From Verrucomicrobiota bacterium (GTDB lineage Bacteria > Verrucomicrobiota > Verrucomicrobiia > Limisphaerales > CANJXF01): a stretch of DNA of 64,000 nt. Positions 39,107 through 61,803 of the stretch are shown here, piece by piece (the first letter of the stretch is position 1; each line of letters starts with the position of its first letter). The translations under genes were made by a program, and so were the position numbers. The stretch covers positions 731 through 64,730 of the forward strand of contig JAYVSV010000068.1 of the NCBI GenBank assembly GCA_043775015.1, read 5' to 3'. Below the pieces are notes generated by a model. The model searched no databases and was not told the origin of the DNA. It saw nothing but the letters and a program-made list of their open reading frames with translations.

Positions 39107-42100
39107 ATGAATTTTTTCGGCTTTAATCTGCCCGCGCCTGGCGCGTACTCCTTGATTAAATTGCGATTCCTACCGTCCCGACAGTGCTGCCTCTTTTTGC
39201 CAATTTTCGGACTGGGTTTGATCTACGTTCCAATGCAGAGCGGTGCGGCAGAAACCAAGGAACAAAAACCGGCTACGAAGGTGAGTTACTACGGCGAGAT
39301 TCGGCCGATTTTTCAGGCGAACTGCCAGGGTTGTCATCAACCGGCGAAGTCGAAGGGCGGTTTCGTCATGACCGATTTCAAAACGTTGCTCGCGGGGGGT
39401 GACAGCGAGGGCGCGGCGATTGTTCCAAAAACGCCGGAAAAAAGTTCAATTCTCAAAATGATCACGCCGCAAGATGGCGAAGTCCGGATGCCGAAAGGTA
39501 AAACTCCTTTGACGGATAGTGAAGTCGCGCTGATCCGTTCGTGGATTCAACAAGGCGCGGACGACGACACCCCCAAAGATGCCAAGCGTCATTACGACGC
39601 CGAGCATCCGCCGCTTTACTCGCGCGCGCCGGTGATTACTTCGCTTGATTATTCTCCTGACGGAAAATGGCTGGCCGTGGCCGGGTTTCACGAAGTGCTC
39701 CTCTACGAAAAAGATGGAGCCACACTGGCGGCACGGTTGATCGGACTTTCGGAACGGGTCCAATCCCTCGCTTTCTCGCCGGATGGCCAGTCTCTCGCGG
39801 TGATCGGTGGAAATCCGGCACGATTGGGCGAGGTGCAGATTTGGGATGTCGCCAAACGCAAACTCACCCTCTCGATGCCGATCAGCTACGACACACTTTA
39901 CGGCGCGAGTTGGTCATCCGACAGCAAAATGATTGCGTTTGGTTGCCCCGATAACACGGTGCGCGCAATCGAGGCGGCCACGGGAAAACAAATCATGCAA
40001 ATGGGTTCACACAGCGACTGGCCGATGACGACGGTGTTTTCGCGGAAGGGCGACCATGTTATTTCGGGAAGCCGTGACATGAGCGTGAAGTTAACCGAGG
40101 TCGCGACGCAACGATTTGTCGATAACGTGACTTCCATTACGCCCGGTGGACTCAAGGGCGGTGTGATGGCGATGGCGGCGCATCCGAAGTTCGAGGAGAT
40201 CGTCACCGCTGGTTCGGATGGGTTGCCGAAAGCGTATCGCATTTTCCGCGAAGTGAAGCGCGAGATTGGCGACGACGCGCAGTTTATTGCGGATCTTTTT
40301 CCGATGACCGGTCGCGTGTTCAGCATTCGTTTCAGCGCCGATGGCAAACGCATTGCGTGCGGCAGCGGGTTGGATCGCGCCGGCGAACTCGTCGTGTGCA
40401 GCTACGATTATACCAATGAAGTTCCAAAAAATTTGCGCGACATCATGGGAAAAGTTCCAGCGACGCGCAAACCCGAGGAGCAGAAACAACTCGCTGATTA
40501 CAAGACGCAGGGCATTCGTGAAATCGCCCGCGTGTCCATCCCGCATTCGGAAATTTACTCAGTCGCATTCAGTCCGGACGGCAACAAGATCGCGGCGGGC
40601 GGCTCGGATGGAATGGTTCGCCTTTTCAACGCGACGAACGGCGCAGTCATCAAAGAATTTTTATCCGTGCCTGTGACCAAGGGAACGATGACCTCCGCCC
40701 GACCCGCGTGGGCACCCAAGGCCGACAAGAACATCGAAACGACAAGCAATTCCGAGTCGTTGCCCGAGGGCGCGAAGGTTGCCGCGCTGGAGGTGCAACC
40801 GGCGCAAATCAAATTCAACAGCCTCAACGGCTACAACCAACTGCTGGTTACAGCGCGACTCGAATCAGGTGACACCGTGGACGTGACGCGTCTGGTGAAA
40901 TTTTCCATGAAGTCTCCGTTGGCAGAAATTTCTGCTCGCGGTATTTTGCGACCCTTAAAAAACGGAACGACAAAACTGGTCGTGACCCTTGCAGGTAAGA
41001 CCGTGGAAACGCCGGTTGAAATTTCCGGACTTGGCAAGGGGTATCAGGCGGATTTCATTCGCGACGTTAACCCGGTCCTGGCGCAGCTAGGTTGTAGCGC
41101 GGGCACTTGCCATGGTGCCAAGGAAGGTAAAAATGGCTTCAAACTTTCTCTGCGCGGCTACGATCCAGAAACTGATTTGCGCGCGCTCACCGACGATTTG
41201 GCTTCACGCCGCGTGAACCTCGCGTCGCCTGACGATAGTTTGATGTTGCTGAAAGCCGTCGCGGAAGTGCCGCATGAAGGCGGCCGCCGCACCACGGTGG
41301 ACAGCAAGTATTACCAGATTCTGCGGCAATGGATTGCCAACGGAGCGAACCTCGACCTGAAATCGGCGAAGGTGACGAGCATTGCAGTTTTTCCGCATGA
41401 TCCAGTTGTGCAGAAGATTGGAGCGCGGCAACAGATGCGGGTCGTGGCGCATTATGGCGATGGGACGGCGCGCGATGTGACGTCGGAAGCATTTATCGAA
41501 AGTGGCAACGCGGATGTAGCAACGCCTGAAACAGGGGGACTCATCACCACCTTGCGACGCGGCGAAGCTCCGGTGCTGGCGCGTTACGAAGGAAATTACG
41601 CCGCCACCACGTTGACTGTGATGGGAGATCGCAGCGGCTTCGTTTGGCAGGAACCACCGACCTGGGGCAAGATCGACGAACTCGTCGCCGCCAAATGGAA
41701 GCGCATGAAAATCGAGCCTTCCGAACTTTGCACTGATCTCGAATTCATTCGCCGGGTTTATCTCGATTTGACCGGGCTACCGCCATCGCCCGCAGAAATC
41801 CGTGCCTTTGTTGACGACTCTCGCGAAACCCGTTCAAAGCGTGACGAAGTCGTGGACCGACTGGTGGGCAGCTCTGACTACGTTGATTTTTGGTCGAACA
41901 AATGGGCCGACCTCCTCCAGTGCAACAGCAAGTTTTTAGGCGCGGAAGGCGCGGAATCTTTTCGTGCGTGGATTCGCAAAGAGGTCGAGAACAACACTCC
42001 CTATGACCAGTTTGCCCGCGAAATTCTCACCGCCTCCGGTTCCACGAAAACAAATCCAGCGGCGAGCTATTGGAAAATCGTTCGCACTCCAACGGAAGCG

Positions 42101-44293: not shown

Positions 44294-44336
44294 CCCATTT
44301 GCCGAACGAAAAAAGCCATAGCCCAAGGAAAATAAT

Positions 44337-45809
44337 ATGATCAAAATACCCGGCGGAACATGTAGCGACCTTTGCGATCCTCATTTGAAAATGACGCGGC
44401 GCGATCTTTTGCGGGTCGGCGGCGCCAGCATGCTTGGGCTTTCGCTCGGATCCATGTTCAAATTGCAAGCGCTCGCCGGCGAACCGGGCAAGCACGCCGG
44501 CGGCCCGGGTTGGGGCACGGCCAAAAACGTGGTAATGATTTATTTGCAAGGTGGGCCGAGCCATCTTGATTTGTGGGATCCGAAAGAAAATGCGCCCGAC
44601 AATATCCGCAGTTCCTTCAAATCGATTTCCACGAAAATTCCCGGGATAAATTTTACCGAGGTTTTGCCCGAGCTGGCAAAGGTGAATGACAAATTCACCA
44701 TGATCCGTTCAATGAGCTACACGCCGAATGGTTTGTTCAATCACACAGCGGCGATTTACCAAATCATGACCGGCTACACGACCGACAAGGTCAGCCCGTC
44801 CGGTCAACTCGAGCCGCCCGATCCAAAAGATTTTCCCAACTTCGGCTCGCAAATTGTTCGGTTGCGTCCCGTGACTGATCCGATGCTTCCGTTCGTGATG
44901 TTGCCTCGGCCACTCCAGGAATCCAACGTTGTGGGCAAGGGCGGCACGGCTGGTTTTCTCGGAAAGGCGTTTGATCCCTACACCTTGTTCCCCGACGGCG
45001 ACGACATGGACATGGCTAAAATGGATCGCATTCGCGTGGACGATTTGAAGTTGCCACCGGAAGTTTTTGCCCTGCGTCTCCAACGTCGCGCCCAATTGCG
45101 CGAAGCCGTCGAAGCCGCGATGCCGGATGTCGAGAAAGCGGTTGAGAATTACAACCTCGACGACTACTACAAGCGCGCTCTGAACCTGATTGTCTCGGGC
45201 CGTGCCCGCAACGCATTCGACCTCACCCAGGAGAATGAGAAGACACGCGACAGGTATGGACGAAATACTTTTGGGCAAAGTTGTCTGCTCGCCCGGCGGT
45301 TGATCGAAGCCGGCACGCGTGTCGTGGAAGTCATCTGGCCGAAGGTCGCCAACTCGGACAACCATTCGTGGGATCACCATTCCGATTTGACCAAGCGCAT
45401 GGGGACTCAATCCGGTCCGATGCTCGATCGCGGTTTGGCTGCATTCATCGCGGATATGGACGAACGTGGCTTGCTCAAGGACACGTTGGTCGTGGCCATT
45501 GGAGAATTTGGACGCAGCCCGCAAAAAGGGGTAAGCACTTCGGGAAATTCCAATACTGCGGACGGTCGCGATCATTGGCCGTATTGCTACACCTCGGTTA
45601 TTGCTGGCGCCGGAATCAAACGCGGTTACGTCCATGGCAAGTCCGACAAAACCGGCAGCAGCCCGGCCGAAGACCCGGTTCATCCGACCGAACTACTCGC
45701 GACGATGTATCACGCATTTGGCATCGACCCGGAGACCATCGTTTACAATCACCTGAAGCAACCGCGCGAATTGGTGAAGGCCAAGGCAGTGACCAAACTG
45801 TTCGCGTGA
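44337..45809 (+). CDS. DUF1501 domain protein
   Basis: [36 protein letters not shown] and GEFGRSP...GRDHWP motifs. Confidence 0.93.
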
Positions 45810-46038: not shown

Positions 46039-46690
46039 GCCTCCGCGCTCACAAGCTATGTCGGTATTTATCAAGGTCATTCGCAGGGTGGTTCGATCAA
46101 TGACCACTTTGCCGGATACCCAAGGCTGGTTGCGTTGCCTATGGGTGTTCTTGGCCTATGTTGTGATTGCCTTCGCGCTGGGGCAGGCGACCGGCTCGCT
46201 TCGTGTGGAAACATACAGTGGGTCTCCTGATAGGCTCGTCCGGTTTGCGGCTATTGCTTTCCTCGTGCCTTGCTTATCTGAGGAGCTGCTTTTTCGCGCT
46301 GCATTTCTCTACGATCCTAAAATAGCTGCCTCGGCCCGGTATCGACTGGGCCGAGCTGTAATCGCTTTGGTACTTTTTGTCCTTTGGCATCCACTAAATG
46401 GTCTGTTTCTGAAGACTGATGCCCATGAGGTGTTCCTAGACCCCGGCTTCCTTATGTTAGCCACTTTGCTTGGCTGCTGTTCTAGTGTGGCATACCTCAC
46501 AACCGGCTCTATCTGGCCTTCTACGCTGATGCATTGGATCAGTCTGGTTGGTTGGAAGGCGTTTTTCGGCGGACGTATTTTTGACTGAGACGATGAAAGA
46601 AAGGACGGCATCTAACCAGCAGCGAACGTCGGCGGGCCGTCGCGGTTGCAATCGGCGCGTCTCGTGGCCGCCGTCGCTGTGCTTGGTTCG
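46033..46690 (+). mobile_element. Integron-type gene cassette (CPBP protease + attC); no integrase in the window
   Basis: G/TTAGATGCC at the left end is the exact reverse complement of GGCATCTAAC (46607-46616) after the ORF. A single ORF is followed by an attC-like hairpin. Confidence 0.75.
46058..46588 (+). CDS. CPBP (CAAX/Abi) family intramembrane glutamic endopeptidase
   Basis: SEELLFRA, FVLWHPLN and GSIWPSTLMHW motifs; multiple TM segments. Confidence 0.88.
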   Translation: MSVFIKVIRRVVRSMTTLPDTQGWLRCLWVFLAYVVIAFALGQATGSLRVETYSGSPDRLVRFAAIAFLVPCLSEELLFRAAFLYDPKIAASARYRLGRAVIALVLFVLWHPLNGLFLKTDAHEVFLDPGFLMLATLLGCCSSVAYLTTGSIWPSTLMHWISLVGWKAFFGGRIFD

Positions 46691-46696
46691 TTCATT
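46610..46696 (+). mobile_element. attC site, degenerate
   Basis: R'' ATCTAAC; stem cagcga/tcgctg, cggcg/cgccg, ggcc/ggcc; ends in GTT (46690-46692). The left arm looks about 6 nt short and R' (GTTCATT) is non-consensus. Confidence 0.7.
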
Positions 46697-46697
46697 A

Positions 46698-49600
46698 ATG
46701 AAACTTTTGAAACTTCCCCTCACTTCGTGCCTGCTGGCGACGGCGTTCTTTGTGACGGCCAGTCGCGCGGCGGATTTTCCGGCGGTTTACAACAGTGAAA
46801 AGGACACGAACGCCGTGCCGCCCACGCCTGAGCAATCGCTCGCAATGTTGAAACTCCCGCCCGGCTTCAAAGCCACTCTGTTCGCCGCCGAACCGGAGGT
46901 GCGGAATCCGATCTCAATGGCTTGGGATGCGCGCGGGCGGCTGTGGATCGCGGAGAATTACACCTATGCTGAGCGCTCGCTGAAATTTGATCTGCACCTG
47001 CGCGATCGCATCCTGATCTTCGAGGACAAAGATGGCGACGGACATTTCGATTCCCGGAAAGTTTTTACCGACGAAGTACAAAAGCTCACGAGCGTGGAGA
47101 TCGGCCACGGCGGGGTGTGGGCGATGTGTCCACCACAGTTGCTTTTCTTTCCCGACAAGAATGGTGACGACTTACCTGATGGCGCGCCGGAAGTAGTGCT
47201 CGATGGATTCACCGTCCCGGAAAATAATTATCACAATTTCGCCAACGGCCTTCATTGGGGGCCGGACGGCTGGCTCTACGGTCGCTGTGGTGCGTCAGCC
47301 CCGGGAAAAATCGGCGTCCCCGGCACTCCGACGAACGAACGCTTGCCGATTCCTGGAGGCATTTGGCGTTATCATCCGAAAAAGAAAATCGTCGAAGTGC
47401 TCACTTCAGGCCCGATGAATTCCTGGGGCCACGATTGGAATAAATACGGCGAAGCTTTTGCCATCAACACGGTCAATGGCCACTTATGGCACATCATTCC
47501 AGGCACACATTATCTCGTCGGTCACACCATCGATCCCAACCCGCGCGCCTACCAATTGATGGACATGCACGCCGACCATTGGCACTTCGATACCGCCAAG
47601 GGTTGGGGAAAATCGCGTGATGGCGTGTACGATTCTTTGGGTGGCGGCCACGCGCACATTGGAGCAATGATCTATAGCGGCGACAATTGGCCCGCCGAAT
47701 ATCGTGGCCATTTGTTCACGTTGAATTTGTTTGGCCGCCGGGCAAACCAGGAAATCCTCGAACGCTCCGGCTCCGGTTACGTGGGCAAACACGGCAACGA
47801 TTCTTTCTTCTTTGGCGACGGATGGTTTCGCGGATTGGAACTCGGTTACGGCCCGGACGGTGGCGTCTTCGTGCTCGACTGGAGCGACACGGGCGAATGC
47901 CACGAGAACACCGGTGTGCATCGCACTTCGGGACGAATCTACAAAATAACTTATGGCGATGCGAAACCGTCTCCGGTCGGCGATCTCGCGAAATTAACGG
48001 TGGTTGAATTGGTCAAGCTACAACTCCACGAGAACGAATGGTTCGTGCGCAAGGCACGTTTGCAACTGGCCGAACGTGCGCCGACGGGTCGCGAATTCGA
48101 AACGGCGAAAGTTCAACTTCTCGAAATGTTCGCGCGTGAAACAAATTCCGTCATGCAACTGCGTGCCATGTGGTCGCTCAACAACATCGGTGGAGCCGAC
48201 GAAACATTTTTGCTCAAACAATTGCAGCATCGAGACGAGTCTGTTCGCACCTGGGCGATTCGTTTGCTCAGTGATCTGTGGCCGTTGGACACCGTGATGT
48301 CCTCACGACCAGCCCACAGAACGGAGGCATCGGTCAGCCAAACGCTGCAAGTGTTTTCCCGAGTGGCGAAGTCTGATTCTTCAGGACTGGTCCGCCTCGC
48401 GCTGGCCACCTTGCTGCAACGACTGCCCGTAACGCAACGCCCTGAGCTTGCCGCGTCGTTGCTCGCCCATGCTGAGGATGGCGACGATCCTAATCTACCG
48501 TTGATGATCTGGTATGGCCTCATTCCACTCGGGGATTTCTCGCCCACCCCGTTGTCGGCGCTCGGAGCAAATTGCCAAATACCGCTTACGCGCAAATTGA
48601 TCGCGCGCCGATTGGGTGAGGACATTGAGAAAAATCCCGTCGCGTTGAATGAATTATTGAAATCAACAGCAACCAAATCAGAAGCATTTCAAATCGACAT
48701 TCTCGCCGGGTTGTCCGAGGCACTGCGCGGCTGGCGCAAGGCGCCAAAGCCTCCGTCGTGGGATGCGTTGCAAATAAGTTTGTCCAGTTCGCCGAACCCC
48801 GGTTTGCGTGACCGTGTGCGCGATTTAAGCGTGGTCTTTGGCGATGGGCGGGCGCTTGATGAAGTGAAGCGCATCGCCCTAGATCGAAAGGCTGATTTAA
48901 AATTTCGCCGCGCTGCGTTGCAAACCTTGATTGAAAACAAGCCGTCCGACTTGCGAATCATTTGCGAACAATTGCTCGAAGTAAAATTCCTCAACTCCAC
49001 CGCCGTCCGTGGACTGGCCCTGTTCGACGATCCGGCCATTGGTGAAAAAATCGCGAAAAGCTATCAGCAATTTCATCCATCCGAACGGGGTGCGGTCATG
49101 GACACACTGGTATCGCGCCCGACGTTTGCGCGGCCTTTGCTGGATGAAATGTACGCAAGTCGAATTCCCAGAACCGACATGACGCCCTTTCATGCGCGGC
49201 AGGTTCGCAGCCTGAATGACCCGGCGCTCACCCAACAACTGGCCAAGGTCTGGGGAGAACTGCGCGACAGCCCGGCAGAGAAAAAGAAATCCATCGCGGA
49301 GATGAAAACAAAGTTATCTTCCACCGCGCTCGCCTCCGCCGACAAAAGCCAGGGCCGCGCGGTATTCAACATAGCTTGTGCGGTCTGCCATACACTTTAC
49401 GGCCAGGGCGGAAGGGTCGGCCCGGACCTGACCGGCTCGGGTCGCGATAATCTGGATTACTTGCTCGATAACATCATTGATCCCAGTGCAGTAGTGAACG
49501 CGGACTTCGGCATGTCGGTAGTCGGACTCAAGGATGGCCGAACGTTGAATGGGATGGTTTCAGAAAAAACCGAGCGCACCATCACGTTGAAAACCATGAC

Positions 49601-49754
49601 CGAAACCGTAACGTTGAATCGCGACGAACTGGCGAGCGTTCAGGAGTCTTCTCTTTCACTCATGCCGGAAGGATTGCTCGAAGCGCTCAACGAAACGCAG
49701 GTTCGTGACCTCATTGCCTACCTCATGAATCGCACGCAGGTTCCACAAAATTAA
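46698..49754 (+). CDS. PVC-type heme-binding CxxCH protein (putative membrane-bound dehydrogenase)
   Basis: FAAEPEVRNPISMAWDARGRLW, NGLHWGPDGWLY, HEAT-like repeats and C-terminal CAVCH...GPDLTG...DPSAVV. Confidence 0.92.
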   Translation: MKLLKLPLTSCLLATAFFVTASRAADFPAVYNSEKDTNAVPPTPEQSLAMLKLPPGFKATLFAAEPEVRNPISMAWDARGRLWIAENYTYAERSLKFDLHLRDRILIFEDKDGDGHFDSRKVFTDEVQKLTSVEIGHGGVWAMCPPQLLFFPDKNGDDLPDGAPEVVLDGFTVPENNYHNFANGLHWGPDGWLYGRCGASAPGKIGVPGTPTNERLPIPGGIWRYHPKKKIVEVLTSGPMNSWGHDWNKYGEAFAINTVNGHLWHIIPGTHYLVGHTIDPNPRAYQLMDMHADHWHFDTAKGWGKSRDGVYDSLGGGHAHIGAMIYSGDNWPAEYRGHLFTLNLFGRRANQEILERSGSGYVGKHGNDSFFFGDGWFRGLELGYGPDGGVFVLDWSDTGECHENTGVHRTSGRIYKITYGDAKPSPVGDLAKLTVVELVKLQLHENEWFVRKARLQLAERAPTGREFETAKVQLLEMFARETNSVMQLRAMWSLNNIGGADETFLLKQLQHRDESVRTWAIRLLSDLWPLDTVMSSRPAHRTEASVSQTLQVFSRVAKSDSSGLVRLALATLLQRLPVTQRPELAASLLAHAEDGDDPNLPLMIWYGLIPLGDFSPTPLSALGANCQIPLTRKLIARRLGEDIEKNPVALNELLKSTATKSEAFQIDILAGLSEALRGWRKAPKPPSWDALQISLSSSPNPGLRDRVRDLSVVFGDGRALDEVKRIALDRKADLKFRRAALQTLIENKPSDLRIICEQLLEVKFLNSTAVRGLALFDDPAIGEKIAKSYQQFHPSERGAVMDTLVSRPTFARPLLDEMYASRIPRTDMTPFHARQVRSLNDPALTQQLAKVWGELRDSPAEKKKSIAEMKTKLSSTALASADKSQGRAVFNIACAVCHTLYGQGGRVGPDLTGSGRDNLDYLLDNIIDPSAVVNADFGMSVVGLKDGRTLNGMVSEKTERTITLKTMTETVTLNRDELASVQESSLSLMPEGLLEALNETQVRDLIAYLMNRTQVPQN

Positions 49755-49813: not shown

Positions 49814-51328
49814 ATGCCAACGTGCTTACCTTCCGATAATCCCCAGAACGATTTCATTCTTCGCCCACAGAGTAACTCACTGGGAAAAACAACATCAACT
49901 TTCCTGATCATTGCAACTTTAAGCGCAATCGGTTGGCTGGGCTTGGGATCAGTGCGTGCCGAGGACAACACCCCGCTACTGGCTCATGGACTTTATGAAG
50001 ATTTTCGCGCGTTACTCAGCGAGGGAAAATTGTGGTTCCCGAAATTTTCAGCGGACGGCAAACCGATTGCGGGAAGCGGGTCGCACATTTCAGCCGACAC
50101 AAACTCCATCGGGTTGAAGGGCGCGATGCTCAACCCGGAAAAAATTAATCTGAGCAACCAGGTAACTCACATCCTTGCTCGTGGCCTGAACGAACCACTC
50201 ATTCACGAAGCGCTGGCGGGAGGTCATTTGTATGTGGCAAACGACAGCATCGGTGATCCAACCGGCTTCATGTTTGGGGCCATGAATAATCAAGGCGTTT
50301 TCACGATGGGCGATTCAGTAACCGCCTTTGGCAGCACGAAAGTGATGGCCTTGACCCCACAGCCCGCAAAACTCCGATTGTTTCGCGGCAGCGTGATGGT
50401 TCAGGAAACAACCGGAACCAATCTGACCTTCGAGAGCAAAGAGACGGGCGACTTCCGTCTCGAAGCATCTTTGGTCATTAAAGGTGAAGAGCGCCCATGG
50501 ATTTATTCCAACCCGGTTTATCTGAACGCGCCTGACTTGATTGAACTGGCAGCGCTCATGCCGTCGATGGAAATTTCTCCTGAGGTCAGCGTGCGCAAAG
50601 ATATTACTTACCAGGAAGGTGCCCCGGAAGATGCCGGCAAACACAAACTCGACATCTACACACCCAAAGGAAAAACTAACGCGGCAGTTTTGTTTTTTGT
50701 TCATGGAGGCGCTTGGAGAACCGGCGATCGCTCTCAATATCCACCTCTTGGAAATCGTTACGCCCGGGCTGGGTATCTCACTGTGGTGCCGAGTTATCGG
50801 CTCGCTCCGAAGTACCCGCATCCGGCACAGATTGAAGATGTCGCTGCCGCCTTCGCGTGGACGGTCAAACACATTGCTGAATCCGGTGGTGACACCAATC
50901 GGATTTACATCGCAGGCCATTCCGCGGGCGGGCACCTCGTGTCATTGTTAGCTCTGGACGACCATTACCTCGCCGCACACCAGATTTCTCCGAAAACAAT
51001 TCGCGGTGTTTTAGCGTGGAGTGGCGTTTATAATCTTAACATCGGAGAAGGTTTGGAGAAACCGTTTGGCAAAGATCCCCAGTTTCGCCTGGCCGCGTCG
51101 CCGATCTCTTATGTGAAATCAAACTCACCTCCGTTCCAGATCACCTATTGCCAATGGGACTACTTCAGCCTTCCAGCACAGGCAAAAATGTTTCAGCGCG
51201 CCCTGGAAAAAGCAGGGGCGAAAACGGAACTCGTTTACATCCCCGCCCTAAATCACATCTCGGAAATGCTCAACATCAAGAACGAGAAAGATCCCACAGT
51301 GGCGGCTGCCCTGGTCTTCATGAAGTAA
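49814..51328 (+). CDS. Alpha/beta-hydrolase (carboxylesterase) with an additional N-terminal domain
   Basis: LDIYTP, FVHGGAW, YRLAP and GHSAGG nucleophile elbow; the N-terminal region ends in RPWIYSNPVY. Confidence 0.85.
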   Translation: MPTCLPSDNPQNDFILRPQSNSLGKTTSTFLIIATLSAIGWLGLGSVRAEDNTPLLAHGLYEDFRALLSEGKLWFPKFSADGKPIAGSGSHISADTNSIGLKGAMLNPEKINLSNQVTHILARGLNEPLIHEALAGGHLYVANDSIGDPTGFMFGAMNNQGVFTMGDSVTAFGSTKVMALTPQPAKLRLFRGSVMVQETTGTNLTFESKETGDFRLEASLVIKGEERPWIYSNPVYLNAPDLIELAALMPSMEISPEVSVRKDITYQEGAPEDAGKHKLDIYTPKGKTNAAVLFFVHGGAWRTGDRSQYPPLGNRYARAGYLTVVPSYRLAPKYPHPAQIEDVAAAFAWTVKHIAESGGDTNRIYIAGHSAGGHLVSLLALDDHYLAAHQISPKTIRGVLAWSGVYNLNIGEGLEKPFGKDPQFRLAASPISYVKSNSPPFQITYCQWDYFSLPAQAKMFQRALEKAGAKTELVYIPALNHISEMLNIKNEKDPTVAAALVFMK

Positions 51329-51331
51329 CGC

Positions 51332-52735
51332 ATGAAAAAATGGATTCGCATTTCGCTTCGGTTAGTAGTCGCGTTGGCTCTGCTCATTGTTACCGGATTG
51401 GTGCTGTGTCTGGATGGGGTTGATTACGGGCCATACTTTCGCGAGCCTTACTACAAAGAAACCACTGCGCGCTTAAACAAGTTAACTGCCACAAACATAG
51501 TTACACGCGGTGAACTGGCGGCTGGGTTCGGTCGTGCGCTTCTAACTCCAACCATCAATGCGCCGCAAGACGATCCCATCAAAGGACAGTTCCGCGCTCT
51601 ACCACTGGCGGGCTATGGCAATCGACACGGCCACCCGGCAACCGGAGTGCATGACGATCTCTACGTCAAAGCAGTCGCCTTTCGAGTTGGCAATCGTCTC
51701 GGTGTGATGGTTGGCGCAGATGCCTTGATCGTTCCGCCTGAGGTGACTGAGATAGCGGTGGCCCGACTTCACCAGGAACTCGGATTGAGCCGCGAACAAA
51801 TTTATCTGAGCGCGACGCATAGTCATTGCAGCATTGGTGGTTGGGGAGAAGGCATGGTTGCCGAAGGGTTTTCTGGAAAATTCCAACCGGGTTCGCGAAC
51901 CTGGTACGCGGATCGAATTGTCACAGCCATTCGCGACGCTGTTGCTGACCTGAGGCCTGCTTCATTTGGCCATGGCAGTTTTGCCGCGCCGGAGTACGTG
52001 AAAAATCGTTTGGTGGGTGAACTGGGCAAGGTAGATCCGGAGTTCAGCTTTATCGTGCTGAAACAAGAAGGAGGTCGAACGGGAATTCTAGGAAGCTATG
52101 CCGCTCATGCGACGGTTCTCTCTGGAAACATGATGGATTTTAGCGCCGACTATCCAGGGTGCTGGCAACGTTCTGTCGAAGAGGCGACCGGCGGGACTGC
52201 CGTGTTCCTCGCCGGCGAAGTAGGAAGCCACTCGCCGTCACCCGGAGACAATGGATTTAAGGGTGCAGACAAAATGGGTAAAGCTCTTGCGCGGAAACTC
52301 CTCGAACAACTTCCCCAAACCAAACTCACCAACTCAATCGCATTGGCCATGCTTGGGCTGGATGTCACCCTGCCTCCACTCAATGTGAGGTTGACCGACG
52401 GCGTTCGGCTCCGGCCCTGGCTCGCTGCAAAATTGCTGCCGGTGCGTGAACACAGTTTTTTGCAAGGTTTCAAACTGGACGACTCGGTTTGGGTTTCTAC
52501 ACCGTGCGATTTCAGCGGCGAGCTCGGTTTGCGCATCAAGGAAACATTTCGTTCAAAAGGGCAGACCATCACAATGACCAGTTTCAATGGCGACTACATT
52601 GGCTACGTCGTTTGCTCGCGCTATTATCACATGGATGGCTATGAACCCAGGCTCATGTCGTTCTTTGGACCGAATGTCCCCGACTATCTGGAGGAATTAA
52701 TTCGTACGATAGGCACTGAGCTATCAGCAAAGTAG
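51332..52735 (+). CDS. Neutral/alkaline ceramidase-like amidohydrolase
   Basis: PLAGYGNR...GVHDDLYVKA, LSATHSHC, YAAHAT, SADYPG and GDYIGY motifs; N-terminal TM anchor. Confidence 0.75.
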   Translation: MKKWIRISLRLVVALALLIVTGLVLCLDGVDYGPYFREPYYKETTARLNKLTATNIVTRGELAAGFGRALLTPTINAPQDDPIKGQFRALPLAGYGNRHGHPATGVHDDLYVKAVAFRVGNRLGVMVGADALIVPPEVTEIAVARLHQELGLSREQIYLSATHSHCSIGGWGEGMVAEGFSGKFQPGSRTWYADRIVTAIRDAVADLRPASFGHGSFAAPEYVKNRLVGELGKVDPEFSFIVLKQEGGRTGILGSYAAHATVLSGNMMDFSADYPGCWQRSVEEATGGTAVFLAGEVGSHSPSPGDNGFKGADKMGKALARKLLEQLPQTKLTNSIALAMLGLDVTLPPLNVRLTDGVRLRPWLAAKLLPVREHSFLQGFKLDDSVWVSTPCDFSGELGLRIKETFRSKGQTITMTSFNGDYIGYVVCSRYYHMDGYEPRLMSFFGPNVPDYLEELIRTIGTELSAK

Positions 52736-52739
52736 AAGG

Positions 52740-54614
52740 ATGAACAAGACGCCTGCAAAAAAGAAACGCAGATGGTTGTTTCGACTCATTCAATTTTTTG
52801 CCATCGCGATCGTTCTCCTGCTGGCCGCGATCTACTTCATTTACGTCCTGCCCTTCTGGGGAATTCCGTTCAACAAATCGCGTCACGGACGAGTGCCCAT
52901 CACTCCGCCTTGGGCTTTGGAATGTTGGGTATGGGAAGACGATGTGAACACGGCAGACTACGTCAAAGAGCTGTTGGCTGGTTATGCCAGACACGATTTC
53001 CCCGTTCGCACCATTTTGATCGATAGTCCGTGGAGTCATCGCTACAACGATTTCAAAGTGGATGAAGATCGTTACCCAGAACCGGGAAAGTTTTTCGGAG
53101 ACCTTCAGACAAATGGATACCGCGTGGTTCTCTGGATGACTTGCATGGTGGATAGCTACAGCAAAGATACCAAGGTCAAGGAGTCCCAAGAATTCTATGA
53201 CCACGCCAGAACCAATGGCTATGTCGCTGCGGGCGATGAAATGAAATGGTGGAAGGGCAAAGGCGGATTCATCGACTACTCGAATCCAGAGGCGATGAAA
53301 TGGTGGCAAGGTTTGCAGAAACAAGTTTTAGATTGGGGCGTGGACGGGTGGAAGCTGGACGGGTGCGACACGTTTTTTTCAAGCAAGGTTGGAAAATTTC
53401 CGGTGCCATTCAACCGCGTCAAATCCGGCTGGATGACGACTCGCCAATACATGGACCACTACGCGCGTGATGAATATCATAATGGTCTTTCGCAAAATCC
53501 CGAATTCGCGACGCTCATCCGCGCGATAGACCGCCCGTGGAGTCATCCAGAAGGTTTTGCACCGCTCGATGCCGCGCCCGTAACCTGGGTTGGTGACAAC
53601 CAGCATACCTGGAAGGAAAAGGATCGAGGAATAGAAGGTGCCATCCGGGATATTCTCAGTAGTGCGCGCCTCGGCTATTGCGTCATTGGCAGCGATGTTG
53701 CCGGCTACAATGGTCGCAGCAATCCAGACGACATTGGGCGTGCCACCGCCGCGATTCTTTCCTCCTGGAAATTGAAAATCAATTCGTCATCGACGGGCAA
53801 AACGGAGTTCGGGACAGCGGCGGGAAATGATGAAATCGCGCCGAACATTTACATTCGCTGGGCGCAGTTCTCGACGTTCTGCGGTCTGTTTTTAAACGGT
53901 GGCCACGGCGAACGCCGGATGTGGAAACGCTCGCAGCCGGAGCTTGAAATTGTCCGCAAGTTCTCATGGCTCCACACCGAACTCGTGCCTTACATGTATT
54001 CGCACGTCGTCGCTTGTCACAACGGAGGCGAGCCATTGATGCAACCACTGGAGACTGGAAAATTTCAATACCTCTTCGGGGATGACTTCCTGATCGCGCC
54101 CATTCACGAAGACAAATTGTCCCGCGCGGTCGTGCTGCCGCCGGGCCAATGGCGCTACCTGTTTCATGACGATGAAGTTCTCCAAGGTCCCCAGCAGATC
54201 ACGCGCGATTTTCCGCTGGACGAATTCCCGGTCTTTGTCCGCGATGGCGCGGTCGTTCCGCTAAACGTAACCCGCTCCTACACCGGATTAGGCGACACCA
54301 ATTCCGCTGGCTTCACGACCTGGCTTATCTACCCAAATCAAAAAAGCGAATTCACACTCTGGCATCCTGAAAGCCATCCAAAGCCCGAATCGACCACCGT
54401 GTCTGTCGATTCAGATAAGTCTCTGAAAATCCGTGTGACAGGAAAACGACAACCACATATCCTCCGTGTCTTCACGCGAAACAAACCGGCTAATGTCACT
54501 CTGGATGGTCAGATTTTGCTCGAAGGTGATGCGTGGAAATTTGAAGCAGCAGACCATCGACTCATTATCAAAACCCGCGACTACAAAGAGGGTTCCTACC
54601 TCGTCTCGTGGTGA
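52740..54614 (+). CDS. Glycoside hydrolase family 31
   Basis: ILIDSPW, GVDGWKLDG (nucleophile Asp), IGSDVAGY (acid/base Asp), YIRWAQF and YLFGDDFLIAP; N-terminal TM anchor. Confidence 0.88.
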   Translation: MNKTPAKKKRRWLFRLIQFFAIAIVLLLAAIYFIYVLPFWGIPFNKSRHGRVPITPPWALECWVWEDDVNTADYVKELLAGYARHDFPVRTILIDSPWSHRYNDFKVDEDRYPEPGKFFGDLQTNGYRVVLWMTCMVDSYSKDTKVKESQEFYDHARTNGYVAAGDEMKWWKGKGGFIDYSNPEAMKWWQGLQKQVLDWGVDGWKLDGCDTFFSSKVGKFPVPFNRVKSGWMTTRQYMDHYARDEYHNGLSQNPEFATLIRAIDRPWSHPEGFAPLDAAPVTWVGDNQHTWKEKDRGIEGAIRDILSSARLGYCVIGSDVAGYNGRSNPDDIGRATAAILSSWKLKINSSSTGKTEFGTAAGNDEIAPNIYIRWAQFSTFCGLFLNGGHGERRMWKRSQPELEIVRKFSWLHTELVPYMYSHVVACHNGGEPLMQPLETGKFQYLFGDDFLIAPIHEDKLSRAVVLPPGQWRYLFHDDEVLQGPQQITRDFPLDEFPVFVRDGAVVPLNVTRSYTGLGDTNSAGFTTWLIYPNQKSEFTLWHPESHPKPESTTVSVDSDKSLKIRVTGKRQPHILRVFTRNKPANVTLDGQILLEGDAWKFEAADHRLIIKTRDYKEGSYLVSW

Positions 54615-54687: not shown

Positions 54688-56160
54688 TCACGCCAGAATA
54701 CCTTTGATCACTTCGCCATGCACATCGGTCAGTCGGCGTTCGGCACCGTTGTGGTAGTAGTTCAACCGCTGGTGATCGAGGCCGAGCAGATGCAGGATGG
54801 TCGCGTGCAAGTCGTAAATGGTTGTCACGTTCTCGACGGCTTTGTAGCCGAACTCGTCGGTTGCACCGTAGCTAAATCCTCTTTTCACTCCTGCGCCAGT
54901 CAACCAGACGGTGAATCCGTGCGGGTTGTGGTCGCGACCGCTCGCTCCTTTTTGAAACGTCGGCATGCGGCCAAACTCGGTGACGAATGCGACGAGAGTG
55001 TCTTCCAACATTCCGCGTTGTTTGAGGTCGCGAATGAGTGCGGCGCAAGGTTGGTCCAGAATGGTGCGATGCACGTCGTATTGTGATTTGAGAGTTCTGT
55101 GTCCGTCCCAATTTCCCACGCCCTCACCCATCGCGTAAGCGCCGTTAAAGAGTTGGACGAAGCGCACGCCGCGTTCGATCAGGCGTCGCGCAAGAATGCA
55201 ATTGCGCGCAAATCCTGCCTTCACTTTGTCGCTGTCGTTGACGCCATACATCTCCAGCGTGGCAGCACTTTCCTTTTTCAAGTCGGCCACTTCCGGTGCG
55301 CTGAGTTGCATCTTCGCGGCGAGTTCGTAGCTGGCGATGCGCGCGCTCAAATCAGTGTCGCCGGGATGTTGGACAAGGTGCCGGTCATTGAGAAATTTAA
55401 GAAAGTCGCGTGATTTTTTCTCGCCGACTGCTGAAATTTCTTTGGGCGTATCGAGATTGGGAATTCCTTTTTCCGCGTTGAAGGCGGTTCCTTGAAATAC
55501 GGCGGGAAGAAATCCAGCGCTCCAATGATTGGGTCCCATCTGCGGCACACCACGCGGATCAGGAATTGCGACGAACGCAGGCAGATTTTGATTCTCGCTG
55601 CCGAGCGCATAGGTGGCCCACGCGCCCATGCTTGGAAAACCATCGAGAATGAAACCCGTGCTCATCTGGTTTTCGGCGGGACCATGCGTGTTTGACTTTG
55701 CGGTCATCGAATGGATGAAACAGAAGTCGTCGGCCAGATCGGCGAGGTTCGGCAACAGGTCAGAAATCATTTTGCCGGATTGTCCACGCGGACGAAATTC
55801 CCAGATCGGCTTGACGAGATTTCCATTTTCTCCTTGAAAGGTAACAAGTCCAGCGGAGCCGGGCATCGGCTGGTCATGGCGTTTGATTAACTCCGGCTTG
55901 TAATCCCACGCATCGAGATGGCTCAGAGCGCCGGAACAAAAAATAACGACGACATTTTTGGCCTTAGGTTTGAAATGGGGCGTGCGCGGCGCGAACGGTT
56001 TTTCCGGAGACCATTGCAACGGAGTTTTGTCGGCGAGTAGCTCTTGTCCACGCAGCAGTGACAATAAAGCGACGGCGCTGAGGCCGGTTCCGCCGTGGCG
56101 CAGAAAGTCGCGGCGATTCAGCATCCACCGACCGGCGTTTGAAATGGTGTTTTCGTTCAT
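54688..56160 (-). CDS. DUF1501 domain protein
   Basis: [34 protein letters not shown] and TEFGRMP...GRDHNP motifs. Confidence 0.93.
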
Positions 56161-56162
56161 GG

Positions 56163-58670
56163 CTAGAAAACGAAGATGAATTCGTTCGCATTCAGCATGG
56201 CGCGGCAAAACGACGGCAACCCTTCGTCGCGAACAAATTCTTTCGAGGCATCCATTTCTTTGCGATCCGGTTCGCGTTGAACGGCGAGCGCAAAGGCGCG
56301 ACGAATTTGCGCGGAGGGATCGGCTCCAGCTTCGTTCTGCAAACGTTCGGCGAAGAACCCGGCCTGCTGCATGATGAACGAACTGTTCAGAAGATTCAGC
56401 GCCTGTAACGGAGTCGTGCTTGTGCTGCGCTTCGGCGCAATTTGTCCGGCGTCGGGGCAATCAAAAATGCCAAACACGCCATCCGTGCGTTGGCGGACGA
56501 CGGTGCCGTAAACCATTCTGCGAAAAGTTTCGGGCGGCCACTCGCGGCGCGGAGCGTAAACGCGCACGTAGTTTTCATTCGCTTCGAAAAAACTAAAACC
56601 GGGTCCACCCATTTTCAGGTCGAGCTTTCCAGTGACAGCCAGAATGGAGTCGCGAATCATTTCCGCATCAGAACGGCGCGGCGGAAAACGCCAGAGCAGC
56701 TTCGTGTTCGCGTCGATGGCGACACACTCTTTGCGCGCAGCGCTCGCCTGCCGATAGGTGGCGGAATTCACGATGAGCCGGTGAATGTGTTTCATACTCC
56801 AGCCGTGATCGATGAATTCAGACGCGAGCCAATCGAGCAATTCGGGATGGGTTGGTCGCGCGCCGTTTTTTCCGAAGTCGCTCGGCGTGGCGACGAGGCC
56901 GGCGCCAAAATGATATTGCCAGAGGCGGTTCACCATCACGCGAGCGGTCAGCGGATTTGCGGGATTCACCATCCATTGCGCCAACGCGAGGCGACGCTGT
57001 TGGTCTTCGGTCAAGTCGGCGGAAATTTTTATTGCTGCGCCAATGTTTGTGTTGAGCACGAATGTTATTGGAACAGCGCTCAACGCATTAGGCTTTACCT
57101 CTTCACGTTTCTGCATCGCTTCGCCGCGATAGAGCAGGTGTGTCATTTCAGGTTTCGCATCCAATGACCCTGCATAAACCATCGGGCCATTCGCCAACTC
57201 GGCGATGCGCGGTTTCAATTCCGCGCGTTCGGCGAGTAATTTTTTTGCCGCTTCATTGGAGGCAAGCGCAGGCGAATCCGATTTCTTTTCTTCGCCAAAT
57301 TTCTGACGATCAGCGGATGAAGCCACCACGCGCCAATCGTCCGCTCCAGTGGCAACTTCAATTTTGTAATCCAACGCCAAACGGTCGGTGAAGCGCTGCT
57401 CGCGGTCGCGACCCCACAAGACCTTCGCGATGGTAACCAACTCCGAAAATTCCAGTTCGACCCAGCCTTTGCCGCCTTCGTTGGAAATCCAACTGCGCCC
57501 ATTGCCGTAACGACCGTCGTTGATGTGTTCTGTCCGATGAATCTCTGAATTCGGATAAACGCTGGACGCGCTTGCCTTGGTGCCATTGGTCGCGAGCGCA
57601 ATATTTCTCGGCGTTTTCTCTGTCGTAAAAACTTCCAGTTCATCAATGCATGGCTCAGCGCTGGTCGTCCGGGAAATGGTGAACCGCAAACGCTTTGCTT
57701 GCACTGGTGCAAATCGTTCCAAATTTTTGCGCGCATTCACCGGCAGCCGCACTGCATCCGTCGTCAGCGGATTCGCGAGCGGCTCGAAATTTTCCAGCGC
57801 CGTTTCTACTTCGGTCAGTCGCTCCTGCTTCGTGGCAAGCTCCTTTTTGCGAGCCTCCATATCTCCGGTTCGCAGCGAGCGTTCGCCATGTTTCACCCCT
57901 TCAAACACGGCTTTCATCGCGAAATAATCCTTCTGCGGGATCGGATCAAACTTATGATTGTGACAACGTGCGCAACCCACCGTCAGGCCGAGGAAGGTCG
58001 AACCCGTCACGCCAACCATGTCGTGCAACTCATCGACGCGCTGGTTCGCCGTCAACACCGGGTCAGGGCTTTTCACCTGGTCCCACGGTCCGCCGACGAG
58101 AAATCCCATCGCTTCATCCACGCCAAAAATGTCACCGGCGATTTGTTCGGTAACGAATTGGTCGAACGGTTTATCCTCGTTGAACGTACGAATGACATAA
58201 TCGCGATACGGCCACGCATTCGATCGCGGTTGATTCATTTCAAACCCATTCGATTCCGCGAACCGGACGGTATCGAGCCAATGTCGCGCCCAACTCTCGC
58301 CGTGACGCGGCGATGCCAGTAATTTTTCCACAACCTCTTCGTAGGCGCGCGGCGATTTGCTTTTTTCAAATGCAACCAGATCCTCGGGCGAAGGTGGCAA
58401 ACCGGTGAGATCAAAATAGAGCCGCCGCAACAACGTGCGCTGGTCCGCTTCGCGTGAGGGAGACAAATTGTTTTTGCGCAACTCTGCGGCAACGAACAGG
58501 TCGATGGGATTGCGGGTTGCGAGCCTGCCTTGTGCGACCGGAACGGCCGGACGTTTAATCGGTTTTAAACTCCACCATGCGACATCATTGGTGGTGCCTG
58601 CAAAAGTATTGAAGGCCCAACAAAACAGGGCGACGATTACCCATAAGGTTCGATGGCGCAGAACTGGCAT
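56163..58670 (-). CDS. DUF1549 / F5-8C (discoidin)-like / DUF1553 protein
   Basis: [53 protein letters not shown] and [15 protein letters not shown] motifs. Confidence 0.92.
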
Positions 58671-58744: not shown

Positions 58745-60085
58745 TCAAACCACTTGAAACGGAGAAAACTTTTTGCCGAGCACCGCTTCGCTCTTCGTTT
58801 TTAACCAGCCTTCCAAAACGCCGGCGTAAACCGTGCGGAAATCAACGGTGTATTTCAAATCGCCGTTCTGTAAATCGCCGGGCGCGAGACTTGGATAGGT
58901 TCCGAGCAAACCCGATTTGATTTTATTTCCGATGACAAACATCGGTGCAGCGGCGCCGTGATCGGTTCCGCCGTTGGCGTTTTCATTTACGCGACGGCCA
59001 AATTCACTGAACGTCATCACGAGAACGCGTTGAAAATTTCCCTGCGCCTTGAGGTCATCCGTGAACGCTTTGATGGAGTCGCCGAGGTCGCGCAACAACC
59101 GCTCGTGCGCGCCGGTCTGGTTCGTGTGCGTGTCATAACCGCCTTGCGAAACATAAAAAACTCTCGTCGGCAAACCACCCGCGATGAGGCTCGAAACCAG
59201 CTTGAGCGATCCACCCAATTGCGACGCGGGATAGCTCGCTTTGTTTTCAAATTTTTTACTAATCGCGAGAATTTGGTCGGAGCTTAATTGCGCATCCATC
59301 GCGGTGCGCTCGATAAAATCCAGCGGCGAACCAGTGTGCTTCACCGAACCAGTCACCGCGCCGATGCTTCCGCCGGAATTGGAATCATCGCTCTGCATCT
59401 CGATTTCTGAGTGATTGAGTTCGCGGTAGGATTTCTCCGAAGCGTTCATTTCGCCTGCCTTGGCTTTATCGCCTGAAACGAACCGGTAGTTCTGTGGATT
59501 ATCAAGGCTGATGCCCATCGGTTTTTTCGCGGCGAACGCTTGGGGCATTTGTCGCCCCACGTTTACGCCAACGGTGGGATCTGCACCCGCGCAGGCATGG
59601 TCAAAATAGCGACCGAGCCAGCCGTATTTCTCAAACTTTTCCGATTCACTTGCGGTCTGCCAAATTTCGGTGGAACGAAAATGCGAACGGTTTGGATTCG
59701 GATAACCAATTCCTTGAACGATTCCCAGACTCCCGGAATCGTAGAGTCCTTTGAATCCGGCCAATCCCGGATGCAGACCGATCGAATCGTTTATTTTCAA
59801 AACATCCTTGCCGGAAAACGCCAGCGAACGACGCGCCTTTTGATAATGATCGTTGCTGTAGGGCACCACCGTATTCAACCCGTCGTTGCCACCCGCCATC
59901 TGCAAAACGACGAGAATGGTCGAGTCGCGTCCGGTCACAATCTGTTTTGAGGAATCGGCTGCGTCGGCTTGCAATGCGGAAAAGGTGTTCGCGAGAAAAG
60001 TTGGAACCGTCCACGCCACCGCTCCACCCAGCATCGTGCCTCGCAAAAATTCGCGACGTGTTTTCAAAGTGATTTCGTTTTTCAT
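58745..60085 (-). CDS. DUF1501 domain protein (DUF1800-associated type)
   Basis: TRREFLR, LQMAGGNDGLNTVVP, PNRSHFRS, GGYDTH and SEFGRR...GTDHG motifs. Confidence 0.93.
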   Translation of the reverse strand: MKNEITLKTRREFLRGTMLGGAVAWTVPTFLANTFSALQADAADSSKQIVTGRDSTILVVLQMAGGNDGLNTVVPYSNDHYQKARRSLAFSGKDVLKINDSIGLHPGLAGFKGLYDSGSLGIVQGIGYPNPNRSHFRSTEIWQTASESEKFEKYGWLGRYFDHACAGADPTVGVNVGRQMPQAFAAKKPMGISLDNPQNYRFVSGDKAKAGEMNASEKSYRELNHSEIEMQSDDSNSGGSIGAVTGSVKHTGSPLDFIERTAMDAQLSSDQILAISKKFENKASYPASQLGGSLKLVSSLIAGGLPTRVFYVSQGGYDTHTNQTGAHERLLRDLGDSIKAFTDDLKAQGNFQRVLVMTFSEFGRRVNENANGGTDHGAAAPMFVIGNKIKSGLLGTYPSLAPGDLQNGDLKYTVDFRTVYAGVLEGWLKTKSEAVLGKKFSPFQVV

Positions 60086-60092
60086 ACGTTGC

Positions 60093-61610
60093 TTAGGTTA
60101 ATTGATATTCCGGAGTGGACATGATCAGCCGAATGGTGTGGCGAATATCCTGGTCATCCAATTCGCCGCGACTGTCGAGAAAATCGCGCAACGTTTGCGC
60201 CTGTTTGGGTTTTAGTTTCGCTTGCAGAAAACGTTTTTCCAGCGCGGGAATGACCAATTCTTTTTGACGCCGTTCTTCCACACTTAAAATTTTGCTGACG
60301 TTAACCACCGGCATCTTCTGCGCCATGCGGTTCGCGACTTCTTCAATTTTCCGCATCCGCTGATTGGACGAGTCCGCAGCCAGGCTTCCCTCAGCCAGCA
60401 CCAACATGGCCGCCTCGTTGTAGCGGTTCAAAAGATTATTGGTGGTGATCCAGCTCAACCCGCCGTCCCATCCTTTCACGTTGGGCGGCATCAACAATTC
60501 CTGGCCGATATTTTTGAGCAACTGCGTGCAAACCAGCGGCGCGGGCAGATCGCGCTCCAATTGCCGCACGCTGCCAACCAGCCATTGCACCGGGCTTTTT
60601 ACCTGCGTGCGAATCACCGAGTCGGCGTAAAATTCCTTGGAACGAAACATCGTGCGCAAGACCGGCTTAAAATTATTTCCCGCGCCACGGAAAACAGAAG
60701 CCAGCGCTTCGATCAACTCCGGCGATGGATTGTCACTGGCGAAAAACTTCCAAATTTTTTCGGTGATAAATCGAGCGGACTGCGGTTGTTCGACAATCAA
60801 TTTCAGAACGTCGAGACCGGTGTAATTTCCCGCTTTACCAAAGACGGTTTTCTCGCTGGCATCGTGCATCGCCTCGCGAAATTCGTATTTCTCCTGGGAG
60901 CGATTGATTGTCCAACCAGTCATGGCGCGAGCGGCTTCGGTCACATCTTTCTCGGTGTAATGGCCCTCGCCCAGAGTGAACAACTCCATCACTTCGCGCG
61001 CGAAATTTTCGTTCGGATGCTGTTTGCGACTTTGCGCCTGATCGAGCCAGATGAGCATCGCCGGATCTTTGGCGACGGCGTAAATTAATTGCAGCCAATT
61101 GCCGGAACCGAGCGTGCGAAACGTCTGGTTTTGCAGCCACATGAAATAAGCATCGCGAACTTTCTGAGCGCTCGTGGCGAAATGCCCGTGCCAAAAAAGC
61201 GTGAGTTTTTCCTGGAGCGGTCGCGGGCCATTCGCCATTCGAGCAAGCCACCAACCGCGCAATTCCAAAATATGAAGTTGCTGGGTGCGTTGTTCATCGC
61301 GCTGCATTTCGCGACGTTTTTCTTCCATCGTGCGGCGCTCTTCTGGCGTGAGCGATTCCTTGCGCGATTGTTCCTGCATTTTTCGGAAGGCGAGAAATTT
61401 ATCGACCCGGCCTGGATCCGGATTGGCCCAGCCGAGTTCGGGTGCTGAGTCAGGAATTTTTTCGTATTCGACAAAAGAATCGACCGCTTTATCCAGCCCA
61501 AGTTTTACCAGTTTTTCAATTTCAGCAGGTGAACCGCCGAAGCCTGCGCGGTTCAACAAATGAGCCGCTGCCGAGTAATTCCACTGCGCAGATGACAAAG
61601 ATTCGAGCAT
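60093..61610 (-). CDS. DUF1800 domain protein
   Basis: AHLLNRAGFG, EKLTLFWHGHFAT, PNENFAREVMELFTLG and PPNVKGWDGG motifs. Confidence 0.94.
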   Translation of the reverse strand: MLESLSSAQWNYSAAAHLLNRAGFGGSPAEIEKLVKLGLDKAVDSFVEYEKIPDSAPELGWANPDPGRVDKFLAFRKMQEQSRKESLTPEERRTMEEKRREMQRDEQRTQQLHILELRGWWLARMANGPRPLQEKLTLFWHGHFATSAQKVRDAYFMWLQNQTFRTLGSGNWLQLIYAVAKDPAMLIWLDQAQSRKQHPNENFAREVMELFTLGEGHYTEKDVTEAARAMTGWTINRSQEKYEFREAMHDASEKTVFGKAGNYTGLDVLKLIVEQPQSARFITEKIWKFFASDNPSPELIEALASVFRGAGNNFKPVLRTMFRSKEFYADSVIRTQVKSPVQWLVGSVRQLERDLPAPLVCTQLLKNIGQELLMPPNVKGWDGGLSWITTNNLLNRYNEAAMLVLAEGSLAADSSNQRMRKIEEVANRMAQKMPVVNVSKILSVEERRQKELVIPALEKRFLQAKLKPKQAQTLRDFLDSRGELDDQDIRHTIRLIMSTPEYQLT

Positions 61611-61803
61611 ACACTTTTGAGACGAGTATTTTGCGAGTTGGGTTACACGGTGCAAAGGATGATTCATAATAAAATCCTCGGAGGCACAACTGCTCCGAGT
61701 CTGTTTAAACCAGCGTGGCACCCGCAAAACAGGAGATGTTATACTCGGGCAGAGCTAAAAATGAAGTTGGCCGGGATGGGAAATGTTGCTATTCTATGCG
61801 CGG

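Follow-up and report, generated by a model that had tools for sequence, protein, structure and literature searches.

A Verrucomicrobiota operon encoding an esterase, a ceramidase-fold amidase and a GH31 glycosidase: a possible membrane-surface module for acylated glycoconjugates

Neutral ceramidases have been solved from Pseudomonas aeruginosa (CerN; 2zws/2zxc) and from man (ASAH2; 4wgk); the bacterial enzyme carries a secretion signal and the human enzyme a mucin-box anchor. In P. aeruginosa, the genes for sphingolipid use are the SphR-controlled cerN, sphBCD and plcH. Here we describe a locus in which a protein of the same fold is encoded together with an esterase and a glycosidase. The locus lies in a 64,000-nt stretch of DNA (hereafter the window; contig JAYVSV010000068.1, positions 731 to 64,730, contig C68 in our numbering) from a Verrucomicrobiota bacterium of the order Limisphaerales, whose metagenome-assembled genome (MAG) of 4.4 Mb is 92.8% complete. 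This genome is referred to as G000; other G codes denote genomes, and L codes the loci or metagenome contigs compared. Its close relatives bear the labels Verrucomicrobiota, Limisphaerales or Pedosphaera-type. Three genes follow each other on the plus strand: EST, an esterase gene recognised by open reading frame (ORF) calls and domain search (from 49802 with a TTG start, or 49814 with ATG, to 51328); CER, for a predicted Zn amidase of neutral-ceramidase fold (51332-52735; ORF, Pfam PF04734 and AlphaFold2 (AF2) model); and GH31, for a predicted alpha-glycosidase of glycoside hydrolase family 31 (52740-54614; ORF, PF01055 and PF21365). CER has the catalytic-domain fold, the aligned Zn ligands and the catalytic His, Arg and Tyr in common with CerN and ASAH2, but unlike either of them it is anchored by an N-terminal membrane helix.

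The first-pass annotation of this DNA had reported three co-oriented genes 3 to 4 nt apart, each product bearing an N-terminal signal or transmembrane (TM) anchor. Both observations were borne out. The stop-to-start spacers are 3 nt (cgc) between EST and CER and 4 nt (aagg) between CER and GH31, a spacing that would imply co-transcription; EST begins with a signal-like segment, and helices were placed at residues 2-26 of CER and 7-40 of GH31. Judged from their sequences, the three enzymes look exported and catalytically competent. We propose, with a probability of about 40%, that they form a membrane-surface module which strips an acylated glycoconjugate of lipid character. Working on the periplasmic side of the cytoplasmic membrane, CER would release an acyl group held by an amide bond, EST one held by an ester bond, and GH31 a hexose or pentose in alpha linkage; where relatives have an intact PHP-type metallohydrolase, this enzyme would hydrolyse one more bond, a phosphoester or an ester. 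Gene order, active-site residues, folds, anchors and linkage come from the data described below, whereas we infer the shared substrate, the order of the steps and the lipid nature of the substrate.

Conservation of the genes was surveyed in a sample of 301 genomes of the same order, representing about 86 families, and no conclusion drawn here depends on the unpublished genome G009. A single-copy CER ortholog was present in 48 genomes, and a GH31 ortholog in 16 genomes from 10 families, all 16 of which also carry CER. The hypergeometric probability of this overlap is 1.6e-14 by genomes (16/16 among 48 of 301) and 1.8e-7 by families (10/10 within 22 of about 86), figures that are inflated by the non-independence of related genomes. 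GH31 is found no more than 2 kb downstream of CER and on the same strand in 9 of the 16 genomes, which represent 7 of the 10 families; it lies directly 3' of CER in 7 genomes (G000, G002, G006, G150, G042, G112 and G164) and with a single gene in between in G214 and G282. The same order was seen in GTDB contigs, scanned independently, with CER upstream of GH31 in 7/7 informative Verrucomicrobia loci. The orthologs of CER and GH31, both single-copy, are at least 65% identical over more than 100 clusters.

CER is also found beside other hydrolase genes. EST, whose catalytic domain is of the BD-FAE type, adjoins CER in G000, G006, G003 and G101 and in the metagenome contigs L071 and L072; among other esterases, a GDSL lipase gene stands beside a CER-family gene in L069, and Abhydrolase_6 genes are found near CER in G002 and beside a CER paralog in G000. 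Free membrane-anchored CehA/McbA-like proteins of the PHP type (450-500 aa) are encoded next to the CER ortholog in G014, G097, G282, G192, G177 and L069, most of their genes being convergent with CER. Six of 9 full-length CehA/McbA-like genes (from 41 relatives) adjoin a CER-family gene, which in 5 of the 6 cases is a paralog and not the ortholog. One of the six belongs to the genome of the window itself (G000:C40:17500-20341; L021 5498-8678, minus strand), where a CER paralog (32% identity) is located directly upstream of a full-length CehA/McbA-like gene on the same strand; CER-PHP linkage therefore occurs in two paralogous lineages. The C40 pair was also found in G001, G002, G006 and G027, and in G000 it is accompanied by a major facilitator superfamily transporter and two large proteins without a Pfam match. 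Since CER is paired with PHP-type, esterase or GH31 partners that vary by lineage, it looks like a hub with lineage-variable partners. The joint function that the first-pass annotation had assigned to the three genes remains plausible to this extent, CER recurring beside GH31 and beside esterase or PHP genes in several families, but the substrate that it named is unsupported.

The CER protein (467 aa) matches PF04734 with 53 bits (cut-off 32.1). When its AF2 model (pLDDT 97.8) was compared with the PDB by Foldseek, the matches were neutral ceramidases only (2zws, 2zxc and 4wgk; E 4e-30 to 2e-28, TMq 0.72), to which CER is 17-19% identical. Profile alignment to 2zws predicts H163, H259, D393 and Y425 as metal ligands (H97, H204, E411 and Y448 in 2zws) and H165, R226 and Y437 as catalytic residues (H99, R160 and Y460); D393 replaces the Glu of ceramidases. 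The motifs THSH and AAHAT are intact, and among 124 diverse relatives H163, H165, H259 and Y425 are invariant and at least 90% have R226. The C-terminal Ig-like domain is missing, as Pfam gives no match there and the model stops after the catalytic domain (the solved enzymes have 630-690 aa). Between metal ligands 3 and 4, CER has about 70 residues fewer than the Pseudomonas enzyme, and its score against the NCBIfam neutral-ceramidase equivalog NF041649 is 29.3 bits, against a cut-off of 1200. The N-terminus is K/R-rich and leads into the TM helix (residues 2-26 in the AF2 model), an N-terminal anchor that is common to 111 of the 124 family members. Lipoprotein anchoring was considered as well; the Cys that follows the helix varies among orthologs and a lipobox-like motif occurs in 7/124, so that a TM anchor is preferred.

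The CER family comprises 5,809 clusters at 50% identity (E up to 1e-3), and we know of no characterised member of this short, anchored ceramidase-fold family. A look-up in the ESM Atlas for CER relatives outside PF04734 gave no usable match. Many CER orthologs (L018, L096, L098, L100, L105, L106 and L109; also L013 and L014) adjoin a conserved housekeeping block, whose genes resemble thiL and tsaB, judging solely by the N-termini of their products. In G002 and G006 this block is separated from CER by GH31, a molybdopterin oxidoreductase gene and a cytochrome c gene.

The GH31 protein contains the domains PF01055 (144 bits) and PF21365, and its AF2 model (pLDDT 90.1) consists of a (beta/alpha)8 barrel followed by two C-terminal beta-sandwich domains. 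The N-terminal beta-sandwich domain is missing, the barrel starting at about residue 53, straight after the TM helix. The anchor (a K/R-rich N-terminus and a TM helix at residues 7-40 in the AF2 model) predicts type II topology and is kept in 119 of 120 orthologs and in 15/15 orthologs from other phyla. In the CER and GH31 families alike, the conserved motifs come directly after the TM helix. The motifs WKLDG, WVGDN and GSDVAG are present; alignment to YicI-type enzymes predicts D207 of K-L-D (nt 53358) as the nucleophile and D286 of W-V-G-D (nt 53595) as the acid/base, and D319 of GSD (nt 53694) as the conserved substrate-binding Asp. All three residues are invariant in 45 orthologs. The first-pass annotation had considered the catalytic motifs of the three enzymes intact, and this stands for GHSAGG of EST, THSH/AAH of CER and KLD of GH31, but the Asp of GSD is not the acid/base. 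A disordered insert occupies residues 345-363. The nearest solved structures are FjDex31A, Lmo2446, Agd31B and YicI, at 18-20% identity. A sulfoquinovosidase was also considered and rejected, because the match to YihQ is weak (E 9e-12) and covers the C-terminal part only.

Outside the order, GH31 orthologs at 47-59% identity were found in MAGs of Hydrogenedentota, 'Nitrospirales' and Sumerlaeota, and an unlinked CER homolog (33-52% identity) is present in 4 of 5 other-phylum genomes with GH31. Several orthologs deviate from the usual form or setting. That of G101 (G101:C18:95436-97400) is in two pieces, by frameshift or assembly error, and in G171:C477, G241:C38 and G290:C4 the match at the threshold used is confined to the N-terminal half (residues 4 to about 326), at 62% identity. 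In G013 (L019, G013:C36:20000-39999) the ortholog (76% identity) comes after a TetR-HlyD-AcrB efflux operon, just upstream of which lies a CER paralog (28% identity), while the closest CER homolog (52%) is on another contig.

The esterase domain of EST (BD-FAE/Abhydrolase_3) spans residues 283-493 and matches PF20434 (BD-FAE) with 110 bits; the best solved match is the esterase 4zrs (E 1e-24). All elements of the BD-FAE/family IV motif set are there: HGGAW at residue 301 (oxyanion HGG from nt 50702), GHSAGG at residue 372 (nt 50915-50932) with Ser374, and NHISE at residue 484 with the C-terminal His. The N-terminus contains a signal-like segment at about residues 30-54, with a signal-peptide-like h-region ending in VRA/ED. 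Residues 73-250 or so are the remnant of a CehA/McbA (PHP)-type domain without the HxH metal motif. This remnant was recognised solely through longer orthologs and the free CehA/McbA-like homologs, since the N-terminal region alone has no significant match in the PDB or Pfam. Residues 85-508 align to residues 260-679 of a 680-aa ortholog, that is, to the C-terminal part of the PHP domain only. The complete domain including HxH occurs in EST orthologs of 650-700 aa, and the HxH segment is seen in L080 and in the free proteins and is gone from the EST of the window, which on this alignment appears to have lost the N-terminal metal-binding half of the PHP domain.

The tight spacing, the pairings conserved even among paralogs, the complete active sites and the family-wide anchors together point to functional coupling at the membrane surface. 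Given this coupling, a membrane module is favoured by the lack of a typical glycan-foraging context, CER and GH31 being single-copy, with housekeeping neighbours. Within 5 kb of the operon no transporter or regulator was found, the neighbours being a haem protein of the Planctomycetes-Verrucomicrobia-Chlamydiae (PVC) type, DUF1501, DUF1553 and DUF1800, and the set of genes that marks a polysaccharide utilisation locus or carbohydrate-active enzyme (CAZyme) island (SusCD, TonB or ABC transporter; sensor/regulator; several glycosidases) is absent. The conserved membrane anchors fit a lipid-like substrate. Candidates are glycolipids and aminolipids, whether scavenged or of the envelope, and molecules resembling lipid A; a sphingolipid of the cell's own is unlikely. 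Sphingolipid turnover of this kind was rejected on the ground that serine palmitoyltransferase was not found in the 92.8% complete genome (NCBIfam NF047600, NF047599 and NF047603; best scores far under the cut-offs); of its two alpha-oxoamine synthases, the better one passes the BioF model. A wider and rather doubtful extension is that the short anchored ceramidase-fold family consists of N-deacylases of membrane glycolipids or aminolipids, which with PHP enzymes, esterases and, in Verrucomicrobia of the Limisphaerales type, the anchored GH31 without N-terminal domain would make up an undescribed pathway turning over or scavenging acylated, glycosylated envelope lipids (lipid-A-like or ornithine-lipid-like) at the periplasmic face.

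Several points weigh against a membrane module. The synteny of the trio, which the first-pass annotation had itself named as a test that could refute its proposal, went against it: EST, CER and GH31 occur together in only 2 of the 301 genomes (G000 and G006), both of one genus. The operon is therefore genus-specific, a form of the looser conserved neighbourhood centred on CER. Among the 48 CER-bearing genomes, 32 are without GH31. No CER lies near the GH31 orthologs of Hydrogenedentota and other phyla, and when the ORFs of 47 loci were clustered, GH31 outside Verrucomicrobia was without any conserved neighbour. To our knowledge, none of the three subfamilies has a biochemically characterised member, and a membrane anchor is no proof of a lipid substrate. 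Because the metal-binding half of the PHP domain is gone from the EST of the window, the picture of four activities is not fully valid in this genome. Finally, the nearest solved relatives of GH31 act on soluble alpha-glucans and xylosides.

The last point leads to the alternative that survives best, a serious one that we nevertheless hold to be doubtful, namely that the enzymes trim soluble glycans in the periplasm and finish imported oligosaccharides, as in SusCD-less CAZyme clusters of Verrucomicrobia. CER would then be an amino-sugar N-deacylase or N-deacetylase, EST an O-acetyl esterase and GH31 an exo-alpha-glycosidase. Such roles are compatible with the BD-FAE family, which includes carbohydrate esterases (acetyl xylan esterase 6xyc, GH43-CE 6mly), and with the strong expansion of the CER family (8 copies in G000 and 17 in G038), as is often seen in catabolic families. 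In 3 of the 7 GTDB loci, moreover, CER and GH31 are separated by a gene whose 640-aa product weakly resembles GH43. In L049 (8027-9949), L024 (7909-9831) and L023 (850-2772) this product is a secreted protein, its GH43 match (E 1e-6) staying under the cut-off, and L049 has a GH127-like gene downstream in convergent orientation. However, no transporter, binding protein, regulator or wider CAZyme island surrounds the pair, CER and GH31 are highly conserved single-copy genes whose uncleaved anchors abut the catalytic domains, and several CER orthologs sit among housekeeping genes.

The three genes could also be functionally independent neighbours brought together by local rearrangement in one genus, each hydrolase having its own substrate. 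The restriction of the trio to G000 and G006 would be expected in that case; likewise, EST orthologs are found in 29 of the 301 genomes, about 12 of them also with CER and 4 with CER adjacent, and CER and GH31 are unlinked in 7 of the 16 genomes that have both. Yet GH31 implies CER in every one of these 16 genomes, across 10 families, with order and strand kept in 9, adjacency of CER to PHP or esterase genes has recurred in independent paralogous lineages, and the 3 and 4 nt spacers imply co-transcription. We therefore regard independence as unlikely.

The dismantling of alpha-glycosylceramides (alpha-Gal/GlcA-ceramide), in which GH31 would remove the sugar, CER split the ceramide and EST remove O-acyl groups, as the first-pass annotation had proposed, can draw on the predicted neutral-ceramidase fold of CER with its apparently complete set of Zn and catalytic residues, on anchors that suit a lipid substrate, and on the likeness of the N-terminal half of the GH31 barrel to MYORG (7qqf) and to bacterial GH31 alpha-galactosidases (8j50), but it is very improbable, because the genome is without serine palmitoyltransferase, CER is distant from the ceramidases, truncated and far under the equivalog score, its family has thousands of clusters from phyla in which sphingolipid use is not known, ceramides offer EST no ester-linked acyl group, the nearest solved GH31s are alpha-glucan and xyloside enzymes, and full-text literature searches gave no report tying the CER family to sphingolipids in these phyla. 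Ceramide specificity of CER is unsupported by any positive evidence.

Upstream of EST, with a gap of 47-59 nt, lies a plus-strand gene for a PVC-type haem-binding CxxCH protein (46548-49754; TIGR02604 382 bits, TIGR02603 127 bits), of the kind annotated as putative membrane-bound dehydrogenase. It has a DUF7133 propeller, HEAT repeats and a C-terminal cytochrome c domain, and translation probably begins at the ATG near 46698, ahead of the signal peptide. The gene is likewise found 5' of EST-CER in G006 (L014) and in the metagenome contig L071, in the latter broken by frameshifts that resemble assembly errors. The operon may begin with this gene, and that its product oxidises the released sugar is speculation. 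A scan for promoters and terminators gave no more sites than in shuffled sequence.

Downstream of GH31 the genes are convergent, encoding DUF1501 and DUF1553 proteins. Three gene sets typical of PVC bacteria surround the operon: a 1728-aa protein, paralogous to the DUF1553 gene product, with DUF1501 (39107-45809); DUF1553 with DUF1501 (54688-58670); and DUF1800 with DUF1501 (58745-61727). As listed, with a TTG start, the DUF1501 gene at 56460 overlaps the DUF1553 gene at its end, and the true start is probably an ATG further downstream, before a twin-arginine-like motif.

The enzymes of the locus are uncharacterised variants within known families, and we found no description of their arrangement; literature searches on PF04734, on ceramidase in Verrucomicrobia or polysaccharide utilisation loci, on membrane GH31 and on GH31 subfamilies returned nothing relevant. 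If the linkage reflects one pathway, it would provide a first functional handle on two large uncharacterised enzyme clades, the short anchored ceramidase-fold amidases and the anchored GH31 enzymes without N-terminal domain, both widespread in Verrucomicrobiota, in Hydrogenedentota and in uncultured phyla related to them, and it would hint at a so far undescribed route by which bacteria turn over acylated glycoconjugates at the inner membrane. Should the genes be mere neighbours, the locus is an ordinary one.

Compared with known systems, the locus resembles the sphingolipid genes of P. aeruginosa in joining a ceramidase-fold amidase to other exported hydrolases, there acting on lipids. Unlike P. 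aeruginosa, the window has no sphingosine regulator, sphingomyelinase or sphingosine-catabolic genes, and its enzymes are anchored, not secreted. EST has the HGG, the GxSxG elbow and the C-terminal His in common with BD-FAE/family IV (hormone-sensitive-lipase-like) esterases such as 4zrs, and differs from them by its N-terminal CehA/McbA (PHP) remnant. The GH31 protein has the same barrel and both C-terminal beta-sandwiches as FjDex31A (6jr6), Lmo2446/CtsY (4kmq), Agd31B (4b9y) and YicI (1we5). Like YicI it has the K-x-D nucleophile, and the W-x-G-D acid/base and the conserved subsite -1 Asp, Arg and His are also present. In contrast to these alpha-glucan and xyloside enzymes, its N-domain is missing, the TM helix runs into the barrel and the insert at 345-363 is found. 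The human GH31 alpha-galactosidase MYORG (7qqf), which resembles the N-terminal half of the barrel in sequence (E 2e-18), is a eukaryotic protein of the endoplasmic reticulum and nuclear envelope that keeps the N-terminal domain and is not the nearest structural match; it nevertheless has the same single-pass type II topology with an extracytoplasmic GH31 domain that is predicted for the enzyme of the window.

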